From Naegleria gruberi (Eukaryota): 64,000 bases of DNA. The notes beneath the pieces were generated by a model. It was not told where the DNA came from. It was given only the letters and a program-made list of their open reading frames with translations, and ran no database searches. Made by a program: the position numbers and the translations under genes. Below, in pieces: positions 28,348 to 62,148 of this stretch. The stretch lies in the NCBI GenBank assembly GCA_000004985.1, contig GG738907.1; one strand, written 5' to 3'. The stretch's first letter is position 1; each line of letters starts with the position of its first letter.

Positions 28348-28534
28348 TTTTTTTCGTAATCTTGTTAAAATTGATTCCGAATCATCATCTTTTTGATTAC
28401 ATCAAGTCACTAATCAAATTTCAATACCCATTAATTGGAAACAAAGTAAGATATTGTAGATACTTATCAACTACAATACTATATTAAACATTGACTGATA
28501 TGTTATGACAAATTTATTCAAAACATTAATGTAA

Positions 28535-28617
28535 CCGATGATAGCTCAGCTGGTAGAGCATGGGACTGTAGCAAGAAAAACTGTCATCCTGTGGCGGTTC
28601 GATTCCGTCTCATCGGA
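28535..28617 (+). tRNA. tRNA-Tyr(GUA)-like gene with ~10-14 nt intron; anticodon-arm/variable-loop geometry irregular
   Basis: Acceptor CCGATGA/TCATCGG, D-arm GCTCAGCTGGTAGAGC, anticodon loop CTGTAG followed by extra sequence, and T-arm GGCGGTTCGATTCCGTC. A downstream T-run is present. Closely resembles eukaryotic pre-tRNA-Tyr. Confidence 0.65.
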
Positions 28618-42095: not shown

Positions 42096-42199
42096 TTCAC
42101 ATTATCGTGAATTCATTTTTTATGATCCTGATTTTCTTAATTTTGATTCATCAGCAATTATATGACTTGGAGAACAATGTGGAATTTTTAATTAGATAT

Positions 42200-46126: not shown

Positions 46127-46633
46127 TTTCACATGTTCTAAATAGGAAGTGTGATCCTAATCTAGTATTTTCCAACAGGTGGTAGCTTTTTGAAAATGTT
46201 AGTAATTAACCAATATCGAGTGAAATTGAAGGAACTTTTTGAAGTTATTTTGAATAAGTGATCTAGTGGTAGTCTTGTGATGTGTTTAATTTCTTAAAAT
46301 TTTTATTTTTGAGATTAATGCCTTGCTTAATGTATTAGAAACAAGTTCGTCCCAAATATTTAAATTTTACATGGGGAGTAGAATTTAATTCGTTCACGAA
46401 TCAATTTACTTGAGTAAAAACATGTAAATAGGAAAATTACATTAATATTGTAAATATTATTTGGATACTCATTTGGCTAAAATTGTTGTTGGATGAATTC
46501 AATCAACCACCAACAATAGTTTCAAATTAGACTTTCCTTTTTAAAAAATATCCGTAAATGGAGCGAGGAAAATAGCGCTCCAAAGTTTCCTTTTTTATCC
46601 TCATTCAATAACTCAATCACACCATTAAAAAAA

Positions 46634-57049: not shown

Positions 57050-58059
57050 TTATTGCAAAACTTCCATGGTAGCTTCGACATCTCCATGTTCATTGGAGAA
57101 CAACATTTGTCTTTCGGCCAAATTCTTATAGATACCATGTTCAATGGCCATCAATTCAGCATGGGTACCAGTTTCTTTCAAAATACCCTTAGCCAAGACG
57201 CAAATCTTGTCAGAATTTCTAACAGTGGACAATCTGTGAGCAATACAAATAGTTGTTCTTCCCTTCATCAACAAGTCCAAAGCAGCTTGAACGAGAGCTT
57301 CAGATTCAGTATCCAATGCAGATGTGGCTTCATCCAACAAGAGAAGCTTTGGATCTTGCAACAAGGCACGAGCAATACAGACACGTTGCTTTTGACCACC
57401 TGAGAGTGAGACACCACGTTCACCCAATAAAGTATTGTATCCATCTGGCAAGTCCATAATGAAACTGTGACAGTTGGCAGATTTGGCAGCTTCAATAACC
57501 TTTTCCATTGTAGTATTTTCTTCACCAATAGCATATGCAATATTCTTGTAAATGCTGGTAGCAAACAATACAGGTTCTTGAGTGACAATACCAATATTCT
57601 TGTGGAGCCACATTGGATCGATTTCGGCAATATCAACACCATCAAGATAAACCTTACCCTTAGCTGGATCGTAGAATCTTTCCAATAAACCAACAATTGT
57701 TGATTTACCTGAACCAGATGGACCAACCAAAGCAACAGCTTGACCGGCCTTAATATCCAAACTGAATTCCTTCAAGACAGTAACATTTGGACGTGATGGA
57801 TAAATAAAGTCAACATTTTCAAATCTGACATTACCAATGATACTATCAAGAGTTTTACCTCCCTTGAAAATAATAGCTGGCTTTCTCTTCAACAACTTCA
57901 AGACAGTCTTTTGAGAAACCATGGCCTTACCATAATCAGGGAAGAATGAACCAGCTTGTGAAATACCAATAATAGCAAACAAGGTTAAACCGAAAACCTT
58001 GAGCATAGATCCGATATTCATGGTTCCTTCAACAACAAGACCTCCACCATACCAGAAAG
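57050..58059 (-). CDS. ABCB-type half transporter, exon 3 (NBD, to stop)
   Basis: Walker A (GPSGSGKST), ABC signature (LSGGQKQR), Walker B (LLLLDEATSALD) and H-loop. Confidence 0.85.
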
Positions 58060-58105
58060 CTAAAATAAAATTATTGAGCTAATTTGAAATAATTAAAAAA
58101 CATAC

Positions 58106-58803
58106 CCAAAGCAGTAGTACCCCACAAGATACCAACCAAAATACCAAAAGTAGAACCTTGAGCAACAGCTTTACCAATACCAGCCAAATACATCTTGGTC
58201 AAGTCCTTCTTGTATCTGACTCTTTCCTTTTCTTCTCCGGCCATTGATCTTACAGTTCTCATAGCTCCCATCACTTCAGTAGCAATGGAGGCACTATGAT
58301 CGTTGGCCTTATTAATTGCCAAAGTTAACTTTCTGATAATACCCCCGAGGAACACTACACCTAGAATCATCAATGGTGTAGTACTCATCATGACAAGGGC
58401 CATTTGCCATCCTGATGTCAAGGCAAGAATGACACCAATCAAAAATTGTGCCAAGTTTTGAAGTAAAGTAGCCATTTTGACAGAATAAATTTCTTGAATA
58501 CGAGTGATATCTTCTGAAAGTGTAATGGTCAATGCACCAACCTTCTTAATATCAAAGAAGCCCATCTCTTGAACTGTCAATGAATCAAAGTAAGCACTTC
58601 TAATAGCAACACCAATTCTTTCACTGGCCCAGTTCAAGAAGAATTGAGACATGAAATTGGCAATGCAAGCAGCAGCTGCAATAATGGCAAAGTATGAAGC
58701 ATAGACTCCAATTTCGGCCTTTTGTTGCTCTGGAGTAACAGTTGATCCATCTGCACGTGTTGGTGAAAAGACATTGATTAAATCTCCCATAACAAATTGG
58801 AAA
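58106..58803 (-). CDS. ABCB-type half transporter, exon 2 (TMD)
   Basis: Bounded by acceptor CTAATAG and donor GTATGT. Encodes TM helices ending ...LWGTTAL|AFWYGG, a conserved ABCB junction. Confidence 0.8.
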
Positions 58804-58853
58804 CTATTAGATTCAACAATATTAACAATCGGAATGTTAGTATAATTACATAC

Positions 58854-59143
58854 CTAATTGGAATCACACCAGTACCCATAGCTCCGATGCTTCCCAAGAA
58901 TACTAATATCCAATTCCATCCTATAATTTTATAAATTGTAAAACCGTCTTTAAATGTAAGATTTGGTTCTCTTTCATCAGGAATTTCCTCGGAATCTTTC
59001 TTTTCTTCTTCTTGTTTCTTCTTTCTCTTGAAAGGATTTCTTGATTTTCTTTCCGTTTGTGGTTGTTTCTTATCTTCCTTAATTTCTTGTTGTTGTGCTT
59101 TAACTTCCACCACATCAACAACTAATTCATTGTTTGCCGACAT
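58854..59143 (-). CDS. ABCB-type half transporter, exon 1
   Basis: True ATG at 59143 (the ORF tool used an upstream GTG). Basic/acidic N-terminus, then the start of TM1 (GWNWILVFLGSIGAMGTGVIP). Donor GTATGT. Confidence 0.7.
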
Positions 59144-59608
59144 GTTGTGTTCTATATACAAAGATGATTGTGTATTATCCACTATTATTATTCAAATTTC
59201 AAATTGATAGGAAGACCTAAAAGTTGAGTGGATAACAATTCGCTTGTTTTTTTCTGTTGTGTTTTTAATTTTAGTGGAGAGAATCTCAAGCACGTACAAT
59301 TTTCTTCCATCTAGAAGAGATTCAATTGCGACTGCAAGTCATTTGATGTTGTGACTATCATTGAAATGGTGGCGCACTTGTGGGTGTTGGTATTCAATAG
59401 TGCGGTAGGCACGCTTATAGCGAAATTGTTCAACGCTTATAGCGCCAATGTGTCTAACGGTAAGAAAAAACCCGCTCTTTAGTTGAGACTTTAGAGAGGG
59501 AGCATGAGATTTTTGAGTGAGGATAAATCCTATACTATTAATACAATACAATTACACAGTGTTAAGATTATCAATATTCTTTAGATTCATTGTTTTAGGG
59601 TTATGAAT

Positions 59609-59727
59609 GGCTACGGCCATATCACGATGAATGCACCTCATCCCGTCCGATTTGAGAAGTTAAGCATCGTCGAGCCACATCAGTACTGAGGTTGGAGACA
59701 ACTTGGGAACCTGTGGTGCTGTAGTCT
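59609..59727 (+). rRNA. 5S ribosomal RNA gene
   Basis: GGCTACGGCCATATCACGATGAATGCACCTCATCCCGTCCGATTTGAGAAGTTAAGCATCGTCGAGCCACATCAGTACTGAGGTTGGAGACAACTTGGGAACCTGTGGTGCTGTAGTC aligns block-by-block to eukaryotic 5S. A terminal T6 run is present. Confidence 0.8.
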
Positions 59728-59733
59728 TTTTTG
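59727..59733 (+). terminator. Pol III terminator (T-run) of the 5S gene
   Basis: TCTTTTTTGC immediately 3' of the 5S end. Confidence 0.6.
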
Positions 59734-60062
59734 CTTTTACCACACATTTTCTATTTAGAGACATTTTCATTACAAGATTCAAAGGTTGAGGTGGAAATCA
59801 AGGACGTTCTTTCCAGTCACTGGAAGACAGTGTCTATTATCCTCAATCTAAATCTCACAAGCTCATCAAATCTACAGAGATCTAAAGAGAAAAAGTCCTA
59901 AATATTCAACACTGGATTTTTAAGAAGCAATTAGTGGTAGTTGTCACCATTGCTAATTATCTTTTTAAATAGAAGAAATGAGAGAGGGATTTTTTCGTAT
60001 CGTAAACTTAACATATGAGGTAAAATATTTCAGTTGAAAAATAAGGTAATGGCAGTAAGGGA

Positions 60063-60132
60063 AAAGAAAAAGAAGTAAAATCTGCAGAAGGTGGGATTTG
60101 AACCCACGAAGCTTGCGCAGTAGAACTTGAGT
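60063..60132 (-). tRNA. 5'-truncated tRNA-Leu(CAA)-like sequence (D-loop through 3' acceptor strand), possible pseudogene or tRNA-derived element
   Basis: Reverse complement reads AAAGTGGTCAAAGGGGGTAGACTCAAGTTCTACTGCGCAAGCTTCGTGGGTTCAAATCCCACCTTCTGCA, with an intact anticodon stem-loop (CAA), long variable arm, T-arm and 3' acceptor strand. No matching 5' acceptor/D-stem was found. Confidence 0.5.
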
Positions 60133-60207
60133 CTACCCCCTTTGACCACTTTCAATGTGGCAAACACTAACATACCTACTGCGCAACCCCTGCTTCACAT
60201 TAAGGTA
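60133..60207. repeat. perfect 25-bp inverted repeat with 25-nt loop (75-bp hairpin) abutting the truncated tRNA-Leu-like sequence
   Basis: CAATGTGGCAAACACTAACATACCT ... AGGTATGTTAGTGTTTGCCACATTG, exact reverse complements. Confidence 0.85.
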
Positions 60208-60577
60208 TGTTAGTGTTTGCCACATTGAAAAATGCGACATTCCCCTTTTTGTTGGTTGAGTAGTATCTTATAGTAGATCAACAATGTTTCTAGAGCAGTG
60301 TTAGAGTGCAAATGTACTATCGTACTGACAAAAACTATTAGTGGTTCATTTGGATCATAAACTTTAACCTCATAAGAGTAGTATCGTACCTTCTCTAGAA
60401 GACTGATAAAAATGATTGATGGAGTGAACATGCGGATTTGTACCTTAATTTTTATGAATAAATGAAAAAACGAAAGTAATTCAAACTTTACCCCGTATAT
60501 TTAAACATTGAGGGAGGGTCATATGACCTTAATTAAATGAAGTCAAACCAAAAGTTTTGTCACAATATAAAACAGAA

Positions 60578-60649
60578 GGGGACCAGTGGGAATCGAACCC
60601 ACGGCCTCTCGCACCCAAAGCTATAATCATACCACTAGACCATGGTCCC
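60578..60649 (-). tRNA. tRNA-Pro(UGG)-like (anticodon stem has two A-G mismatches; possibly a pseudogene)
   Basis: Reverse complement reads GGGACCATGGTCTAGTGGTATGATTATAGCTTTGGGTGCGAGAGGCCGTGGGTTCGATTCCCACTGGTCCCC. It is near-identical to eukaryotic tRNA-Pro(UGG) except that 27-31 is ATAGC where the human tRNA-Pro(UGG) sequence, recalled from memory, has CUCGC. Confidence 0.6.
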
Positions 60650-61020
60650 TTACATGAAATATGAAGAATTTATTTCTCAATGTAGTATTATATCCTTATT
60701 TTTGATACCTTATCTCTTTAGATATTTATTGCAAGTCTTGTTGTCAACCCAAATATTCAACTTGTTTGTCATTGAGGATGAGACGATTGCAGCATTTCTG
60801 CTCTCATTCCTTAATTGATTAATTAGTGTGAAAAATCGAATGGACAAAGAAGCTATATTTTGAACATGACTAATCAAAAGTAAGTGTCGGTTTGACTAGC
60901 ACCGTACTTTCGTATTCACTACAGAACTTAATCATCAAAACTCGTGAACCTCAAGAAATTAAACCTGATATTATTGCGCATCAATCTATTGCATATTTAA
61001 TACTATTTTATTTTACAATT

Positions 61021-62148
61021 TTAATCGTCGAAGACTATTGATACATCAACTAGCTTTGAATTTCTGGCACTTTCGATTAATTTCTCCTTTGTTCTTGAAT
61101 GTTTGGTCATTGTCTTGTGCGAATTGTGGAAAAAACAGCATTGCCATCCACTGTTCAAAACATCATTAAATTTCAATGGGCCAACTCCAGCAAGTGAGCT
61201 CAATTCATCTAAATTAAACTTCTGTACGAATGGAAATTTTGGAAATGGTTTTTCAGGAAAATCAGCAAACATTTCACCAATACAAAATACATCATTCTTA
61301 CTATTGAGAAAATACTCTCCTCTTGAAAATCCTCCTATTTCAATAACTTCTCCTAAATCTAGAGGGCATTCAGTTAAATTATTATGATCTGAACTATCCT
61401 CCTTCAATCCAAATGTTGCTTGATGCATATTGTCATAACCACAACAAAATATCTTGTTCTCTTTGGTTCTAAGTATAACATGATAGTAACCTCCTTTAAC
61501 TTTGTCTATTGTGTGTTTTTTTTCTAGGAAAGTTGATAAATGGTTCAAATTGGAGTCATAATCTGAATAACCTAATCCTGATCTAATGTGATTGCCCAGA
61601 TCTTGAGCGTAAATCTTATTCTCTCTATCAACAATTAAAAATCCACCATTCCAACAACCTCCACATCTAATAACAGTATCATTTGGTATCTCAATTTTCA
61701 CAGGAGTTTCTTTTTTGCTCAATTCCCACAATTCGTTCCTGTCGTTGATAATTAAAAATTGATTTGCCAGAGGTCCACTCATTACTTCCTTAATCCTAAT
61801 GTTTAATTGATACATATGGCCCTCTGGATTCTCGGCAGAATCAATTCTCAAAACTCTTGTTCCATTTACATCAACTATATAAATTGAATCAACATTTCTA
61901 TAATATTCATTTGGTATAAAATCTGGATGGTGCTTTTTGAAATTAATTTTCAAAAGTTTCAAGGACACGGTTTTTTCAGCAATCAATTGATTATTGCCAG
62001 TCAATCGTGATAATTCCAATTTACAACAATCACCTTCGCCATGCCCAAAATAAACAATATCATTATTCTGATCTACAAAATAAATATACCTCTCTCCTCC
62101 GAACATTGTTTTAAATTGAAAATTAGTAAATTGGCAATAAAACAACAT
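61021..62148 (-). CDS. RCC1-repeat (beta-propeller) protein
   Basis: 375-aa ORF with RCC1-like blades (VKGGYYHVILRTKENKIFCCGYDNMHQATFG, IRCGGCWNGGFLIVDRENKIYAQDLG). A possible short 5' exon lies at ~62270-62291 (MLLALIL, donor GTGTATGT, acceptor TTATTGCAG). Confidence 0.6.
   Translation of the reverse strand: MLFYCQFTNFQFKTMFGGERYIYFVDQNNDIVYFGHGEGDCCKLELSRLTGNNQLIAEKTVSLKLLKINFKKHHPDFIPNEYYRNVDSIYIVDVNGTRVLRIDSAENPEGHMYQLNIRIKEVMSGPLANQFLIINDRNELWELSKKETPVKIEIPNDTVIRCGGCWNGGFLIVDRENKIYAQDLGNHIRSGLGYSDYDSNLNHLSTFLEKKHTIDKVKGGYYHVILRTKENKIFCCGYDNMHQATFGLKEDSSDHNNLTECPLDLGEVIEIGGFSRGEYFLNSKNDVFCIGEMFADFPEKPFPKFPFVQKFNLDELSSLAGVGPLKFNDVLNSGWQCCFFHNSHKTMTKHSRTKEKLIESARNSKLVDVSIVFDD

Follow-up and report, generated by a model that had tools for sequence, protein, structure and literature searches.

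Template-switch mutations, as described by the four-point model of Loytynoja & Goldman, by quasi-palindrome correction and by MMBIR/FoSTeS, turn a short segment into the reverse complement of nearby sequence with junction overlaps of 1-2 nt, and they are documented to produce perfect hairpins in a single event (PMC5453318, PMC8794818, PMC10710096). Eukaryotic nuclear tRNA pseudogenes have one arm destroyed while T arm, anticodon arm, B box and terminator are still recognisable; they score below the thresholds of tRNA detectors and have intact Pol III genes around them. Ectopic introns with bulge-helix-bulge (BHB) boundaries and permuted tRNA genes, known from Cyanidioschyzon merolae, nucleomorphs and Archaea, likewise combine extra sequence in the D region with genes that standard tools miss (PMC3728597, PMC3978253, PMC4090602). 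The locus considered here, in a 64-kb stretch of Naegleria gruberi DNA (the whole of which is referred to as the window), has likenesses to all three. It differs from the template-switch mutations in that two source segments were used, that it lies in a tRNA gene and that the first position of the gene (+1) is trapped in the hairpin loop. It differs from the tRNA pseudogenes in that the lesion is a precise 36-nt replacement by inverted copies instead of point decay or truncation, with the remainder undecayed, and from the ectopic introns and permuted genes in that removal of the extra sequence restores no cloverleaf and no BHB is found at its boundaries. Unlike in those latter systems, the window holds no 5' piece elsewhere, and its other tRNA genes are conventional.

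We consider it fairly probable that the locus is a nuclear tRNA-Leu(CAA) gene (60193-60083, minus strand), the D arm of which was hit by a young and local rearrangement of the template-switch type, and that it is now a pseudogene. The original prediction had recognised the body of a tRNA-Leu(CAA) whose D region is broken and passes into a perfect hairpin, and it had counted insertion or deletion among the options; our reading agrees with this. The feature itself is real and spans 60083-60230 on the minus strand, while the coordinates first proposed for it (60063-60207) were about 20 nt too low. Its parts and the neighbouring genes are listed in Table 1.

Table 1. Features of the disrupted tRNA-Leu(CAA) locus, of its surroundings in the window and of the metagenomic comparison contigs. 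Index denotes the position in the 111-nt gene counted from +1.
Feature	Position	Strand	Basis or remark
Arm A TTTCAATGTGGCAAACACTAACATACCT (gene strand), 5' flank, -10 to -37 from +1	60203-60230	-	putative source of arm B
AATGTGAA, promoter-proximal/initiator-like motif	60194-60201	-	abuts +1; in hairpin loop
5' acceptor strand GCAGGGG, index 1-7	60187-60193	-	Rfam tRNA alignment; pairs with 60090-60084
TTGCGCAGTAG, 11-nt copy, index 8-18	60176-60186	-	perfect reverse complement of 60113-60123, 11/11
Arm B AGGTATGTTAGTGTTTGCCACATTGAAA, index 17-44, D region	60150-60177	-	perfect reverse complement of arm A
Remnant D loop and D-stem 3' strand, GTGGTCAAA-GGG-G, canonical positions 15-26	60137-60149	-	invariant columns
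Anticodon arm GTAGA-CTCAAGT-TCTAC, CAA at 60129-60127, no 37/38 intron	60120-60136	-	
Short class-II variable region TGC-GCAA-GCTTC	60108-60119	-	
T arm GTGGG-TTCAAAT-CCCAC, with B box GGTTCAAATCC	60091-60107	-	
3' acceptor strand CTTCTGC and discriminator A73 (60083)	60083-60090	-	
Pol III terminator-like T runs: TTTT 60081-60078, TTTTT 60071-60067	60067-60081	-	
Pre-+1 motif sites	42096-42103, 46127-46134, 60650-60655, 60194-60201	-	
Pre-+1 motif site	28529-28534	+	
Pre-+1 motif site, 5S rRNA gene	59603-59608	+	
5S rRNA gene	59609-59727	+	105 bits
tRNA-Pro(TGG)	60578-60649	-	ordinary tRNA gene
tRNA-Tyr(GTA), short canonical 37/38 anticodon-loop intron	28535-28617	+	Rfam 43.9 bits, ARAGORN -i
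ABC-B (MDR/TAP-type) transporter gene	57050-59182	-	
ORF	61021-62148	-	100% identical to N. gruberi predicted protein
Tandem tRNA arrays, metagenomic contigs	L022 887-1337; L046 1831-2173; L057 7605-7812; L043 3856-4668		

The identity of the gene rests on its 3' portion. As a comparison set we used 72 metagenomic loci with the same anticodon arm and T arm, which represent 38 distinct canonical tRNA-Leu(CAA) genes. All 38 share the layout N7-T-N-CCC-GAGYGGTCNAA-GGG-G-GTAGA-CTCAAGT-TCTAC-variable-GTGGGTTCRAATCCCAC-N7-A. From GTGGTCAAAGGGGG onwards, approximately from A14/G15 to A73 (60149-60083), all columns that are invariant in 28 aligned relatives are retained in the window gene, which bears out the earlier view that its anticodon arm, variable region, T arm and 3' acceptor (CTTCTGC-A) are canonical. 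Its variable region (TGCGCAAGCTTC) is a single nucleotide away from that of the metagenomic Leu(CAA) gene on contig L043 (TGCGTAAGCTTC). In comparison to the canonical genes with a short variable arm (L043, L071, L020 and L022) it is identical from G15 to the T arm except for the variable tetraloop, GGTCAAAGGGGGTAGACTCAAGTTCTACTGC....GCTTCGTGGGTTCAAATCCCAC. By contrast, these genes are 81 nt long and carry T8-G/T9-CCC-GAG, where the window gene, with 111 nt, has TTGCGCAGTAG and the 28-nt arm. The 38 canonical relatives measure 81-85 nt, so that the window gene exceeds the 81-nt forms by 30 nt. T runs similar to those downstream of the disrupted gene are also seen at the other tRNA genes and the 5S gene of the window.

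The 5' acceptor strand had been thought absent, but it is found within the loop of the hairpin. GCAGGGG (60193-60187) pairs at seven of seven positions with CTTCTGC, including the wobble pairs G5-U68 and G6-U67, with predicted pair probabilities of 0.53-1.0, and the Rfam tRNA model (RF00005) aligns end to end over 60193-60083. On the gene strand the loop reads TAATGTGAA directly followed by GCAGGGG, with the motif AATGTGAA abutting the first nucleotide of the heptamer. The same position, immediately 5' of +1, is occupied by AATGTGAA before the G of tRNA-Ser, by ATGTGAAa before the T of tRNA-Asp, by ATGTAA before the G of tRNA-Pro and by AATGTAA before the C of tRNA-Tyr. AATGTGAA occurs 13 times in 128 kb (both strands), and its exact abutment by chance has a probability of about 1e-4; for AATGTGAA abutting a heptamer able, in addition, to form all seven pairs with the 3' acceptor, we estimate by hand about 1e-5 for a 150-nt upstream region. 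The Rfam alignment, the acceptor pairing and the abutting motif together place the start of the gene inside the hairpin loop and consequently define a gene of 111 nt. ATGTGAA or ATGTAA thus stands directly before +1 of every tRNA gene in the window (followed by an additional A at tRNA-Asp), and ATGAAT takes this place at the 5S gene. From these sites we regard ATGTGAA/ATGTAA as a candidate promoter-proximal or initiator motif of Naegleria Pol III genes.

The hairpin was originally described as a perfect 25-bp inverted repeat with a 25-nt loop. Repeat and loop are both real, and the repeat is perfect over 28 bp: 60150-60177 and 60203-60230 are complementary at 28 of 28 positions, and 25 nt separate the arms. 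No other long perfect inverted repeat exists in the 64-kb window, and the 25-mer first noted (CAATGTGGCAAACACTAACATACCT) occurs exactly twice, at 60153-60177 on the plus and 60203-60227 on the minus strand, with zero occurrences expected from shuffles. The complementarity between GCGCAGTAG and CTACTGCGC is likewise genuine and extends further than assumed, to 11 of 11 positions (60176-60186 against 60113-60123), for which the chance expectation is 0.18 in the whole window. The partner of this 11-nt segment is the gene's own anticodon-stem 3' strand together with the start of the variable region. Both segments overlap by 2 nt (AG), and together these two perfect local reverse-complement copies, 11/11 and 28/28, account for all 37 nt of index 8-44. 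As in template switching, the additional sequence reproduces nearby sequence exactly in reverse-complement form, the sources lying at distances of 25 nt and 52 nt. What is missing from the gene is the 5' strand of the D stem (CCC) and the normal spacing of the D region. TTGCGCAGTAG stands where T8-G9-CCC-G is expected, and its sequence mimics an A box or D-arm 5' side. There are no mismatches in the 39 bp of duplicated sequence and there is no decay at invariant tRNA positions.

Some further resemblances in this region were noted. The segment 60186-60173 (minus strand), TTGCGCAGTAGGTA, fits the class-I tRNA positions T8, G10, Y11, A14, R15, Y16, G18, G19 and A21, with a chance probability of about 3e-5 according to a rough hand estimate. 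To judge from the sequence, this is either a coincidence left unexplained or a hint of an A box that may have been retained in the allele. Where arm B meets the remnant D loop (60161-60145, minus strand), the sequence can form an anticodon-like hairpin, GCCAC-ATTGAAA-GTGGT, with U33, an 'anticodon' UGA and A37, which is also present in the constrained fold; we judged its reading as a second anticodon hairpin (TGA) to be a matter of chance. An interpretation of the locus as tRNA-Sec, assessed by eye, was rejected as stems and loops do not fit the Sec architecture.

A covariance model that was derived from 28 tRNA-Leu(CAA) genes assigns 56 bits to the window gene and flags its acceptor and D-stem pairs as broken, as compared to 95-102 bits in intact genes, and the end-to-end alignment with RF00005 reaches 26.7 bits, below the gathering score of 29. 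ARAGORN at default settings makes no call at the disrupted locus, and its intron mode with lowered thresholds returned implausible calls only. When the insert is exchanged for GCCCGA, the resulting 81-nt gene is called as tRNA-Leu(CAA) by ARAGORN at default settings. In the D stem (positions 10-12 paired with 23-25), the GGG of the 3' strand is left without a partner, and the D-stem pairs are flagged as non-pairing by the covariance model. The predicted fold of the 111-nt RNA is not a cloverleaf, instead it shows a continuous 19-bp rod, composed of the acceptor and a new helix of 11-12 bp, and the T arm. Its minimum free energy is -44.4 kcal/mol versus -35.0 kcal/mol with the cloverleaf stems forced, and predicted pair probabilities are 0.81-1.0 in the new helix and 0.0 in the anticodon stem. 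The folding energy of the hairpin corresponds to a z-score of -7.5.

Ancestral sequence, direction of copying, mutational mechanism and loss of function are what we infer from the sequence of the locus and its relatives. With the ancestor modelled on unrelated Leu(CAA) genes (the 81-nt form with GCCCGA), about 6 nt of the ancestral gene (G9-CCC-GA) would have been replaced by 36 nt. A first copy would have taken 11 nt from the anticodon-stem 3' strand and variable region of the gene, and a second copy 28 nt from its 5' flank, joined to the first through the 2-nt AG/CT overlap, with all sources within 70 bp. Template switching during replication or repair (a template-switch mutation, or an MMBIR-like process) could have generated this in one complex event or in two successive ones. 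The source of the 11-nt copy forms part of the conserved tRNA body, and the copy in the D region must therefore be the derived one. Arm B directly adjoins this derived copy, and hence it is simplest to assume that arm B is derived too and that arm A represents the original flank. The second copy would then face its source across the start of the gene, which explains the perfect 28-bp hairpin with its 25-nt loop as well as the presence of promoter-proximal motif and 5' acceptor strand in this loop. We interpret the absence of mismatches in the 39 bp and the lack of decay at invariant positions as an indication of a young event. With the D-stem 5' strand lost and no cloverleaf fold, the locus is most likely a tRNA pseudogene, and from the modelled structure the disrupted gene is unlikely to give a working tRNA. 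It may still be transcribed, as to its sequence the +1 motif, the B box and the downstream T runs are intact. The hairpin is most likely a by-product without a function of its own. Several points stand against the template-switch interpretation. Two non-contiguous sources imply two switches or events, which is less parsimonious than one simple switch; the likeness of TTGCGCAGTAGGTA to a class-I D arm at nine positions is left as a coincidence; and selection on a functional structure would also result in perfect repeats and an intact 3' body.

One alternative is a functional non-canonical pre-tRNA, in which the extra 30-36 nt would constitute an ectopic D-arm intron like those of Cyanidioschyzon, nucleomorphs or Archaea, or an RNA that works as an unusual tRNA or tRNA-like molecule. 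In its favour are the intact +1 motif, acceptor pairing, B box and terminator, the flawless 3' body and the resemblance of the new 5' segment to an A box or D-arm 5' side. In addition, when all 2,613 single deletions of 8-74 nt were enumerated and scored with ARAGORN, nearly any deletion of 27-38 nt in the D region resulted in a tRNA-Leu(CAA) call. These calls are, however, permissive and essentially lack a D stem; ARAGORN tolerates its absence to an extent that makes the enumeration unsuitable for locating an intron, and a real D stem arises in none of the variants. No excision can provide the D-stem 5' strand, as the gene strand between 60260 and 60108 contains neither CCC nor any other adequate partner of GGG, the best being TTT (three G-U pairs) or GCC (2 bp). 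A scan for BHB motifs (3-4-3) recovered 18 loose motifs, versus a mean of 8.7 and a maximum of 24 in shuffles, none of which brackets and excises index 9-44. The other four tRNA genes of the window (Ser, Asp, Pro and Tyr) are ordinary, the intron of tRNA-Tyr being at the canonical 37/38 position, and our literature search recovered no report of unusual nuclear tRNA genes or ectopic tRNA introns in Naegleria. We therefore regard a functional pre-tRNA as quite unlikely. The non-canonical intron of the original prediction finds no excision that restores the D stem and no BHB that would remove the insert, and its tRNA-half precursor fares no better: a correctly oriented 5' half of the type GCAGAAG-TN-CC is lacking in the vicinity, the four near-matches to GCAGAAGTNNCC in the window are all on the other strand and outside any tRNA context, and a pairing 5' acceptor is present in cis. 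A chimera of two tRNA genes is rated as improbable. Here deletion or recombination would have linked the 5' third of a class-I tRNA (GCAGGGG-TT-GCGC-AGTAGGTA, similar to the D arm of elongator Met) to the 3' five-sixths of tRNA-Leu(CAA), arm A would be a later copy made from the junction, and the parent tRNA gene would begin with GCAGGGGTTGCGCAGTAGGTA. Index 1-21 indeed displays all conserved features of a class-I acceptor and D-arm 5' side, and the Rfam tRNA model aligns positions 1-17 to the new 5' segment. Such a fusion leaves as coincidences the 11/11 complementarity to the Leu variable region (about 1e-3 for this gene), the 7/7 pairing of a foreign 5' acceptor with the Leu 3' acceptor (about 1e-3) and, as a third, the atypical T9. 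Moreover, index 22-44 is not tRNA-like, and the 18-mer GGGGTTGCGCAGTAGGTA occurs in prokaryote genomes at the chance rate, with 16 matches where about 17 are expected, not one of them within a tRNA gene. The 5' segment had no match in viral contigs.

The remaining alternatives concern the origin or the fate of the hairpin. Transfer RNA genes are known insertion targets in several protists, and the perfect inverted repeats would suit a foldback or MITE-like element, or a tRNA-derived SINE, inserted at the tRNA gene, as the original prediction had considered. Target-site duplications, by which such an insertion was to be recognised, are lacking: the flanks, CGCATT on the one side and GTGGTC on the other, share no direct repeat, and only two short, unrelated direct repeats are present. 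The space between the 'terminal repeats' consists of the promoter-proximal motif and the first 16 nt of the host gene itself, so that the loop is the gene's own +1 and motif, and these an inserted element would not have carried with it. The 81-bp unit is far below the size of known MITEs, and no further copy of the arm exists in the 64-kb window or in viral contigs. A mobile element is consequently highly improbable. With no excision that restores the cloverleaf, no usable BHB and no target-site duplication, mobile element, non-canonical intron and split tRNA are all unsupported. In E. coli, quasi-palindromes are well known to drive template switching, and the zero divergence of the perfect repeats would equally be expected from template switching in E. 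coli clones, or from a misassembly, that is absent from the amoeba. A consensus of multiple independent clones would, however, not normally fix an error of a single clone, and the flanks are colinear and the junctions show short overlaps as in events in vivo, which leaves an assembly or cloning artefact hardly probable. The hairpin has the dimensions of a pre-miRNA, a folding-energy z-score of -7.5 and intact Pol III elements, and new miRNA hairpins are documented to arise through template-switch mutations (PMC10710096). It is nevertheless most improbable that it represents a newborn Pol III-driven structured RNA, with a hairpin or rod giving rise to small RNAs in the manner of a tRNA-linked pre-miRNA-like unit, in particular as the conserved motif puts +1 in the loop and arm A is thus probably not co-transcribed with arm B. 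Matches of the hairpin to the Rfam miRNA families mir-633 and mir-2011 reflect shape only and lie far below threshold. Very unlikely, too, is the related case that the rearranged gene is alive and yields a Pol III-driven tRNA-like RNA of 111 nt (the 19-bp rod and T arm), or the 28-bp hairpin if transcription starts further upstream, from which RNase P/Z or Dicer would release a lineage-specific small RNA.

Together with a dispersed 5S rRNA gene and tRNA-Pro, the disrupted tRNA-Leu gene forms a small Pol III cluster within about 1 kb (59609-60649). The tRNA-Tyr(GTA) gene elsewhere in the window was missed by ARAGORN at default settings and recovered by Rfam and ARAGORN -i. The nearby ABC-B transporter gene consists of at least three ORF blocks interrupted by short spliceosomal introns (58021/58071 and about 58778-58790); N. 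gruberi paralogues display 64-68% and a metagenomic ortholog 80% identity to it. Upstream of this closest ortholog (P0002, on ENA contig L073) neither a tRNA nor a 5S gene was found, and the ORF upstream of it is unrelated to the RCC1-like gene. Judged by this comparison, the Pol III cluster is not syntenically conserved with respect to the related heterolobosean metagenome contig. In several of the metagenomic comparison contigs two to five tRNA genes, multiple copies of the Leu type among them, are arranged in tandem.

Under the preferred template-switch interpretation the locus is a new case of phenomena that are already known, and it does not represent a new kind of tRNA. On this reading it is a clean and very young illustration of how template switching can create a perfect hairpin and, at the same stroke, destroy or remodel a Pol III gene, in a protist for which there is no catalogue of template-switch events. 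The ATGTGAA/ATGTAA motif, by which the true 5' end of the disrupted gene was located, could also aid the annotation of Pol III genes in Naegleria. Before an 'odd tRNA plus hairpin' pattern is attributed to a non-canonical intron or a mobile element, it should be checked for inverted copies of local sequence. The biology of tRNA is left unchanged unless RNA from the locus proves to be expressed and processed; if the rearranged gene does yield a processed RNA, a tRNA gene would have been caught turning into a new non-coding RNA gene via template switching.
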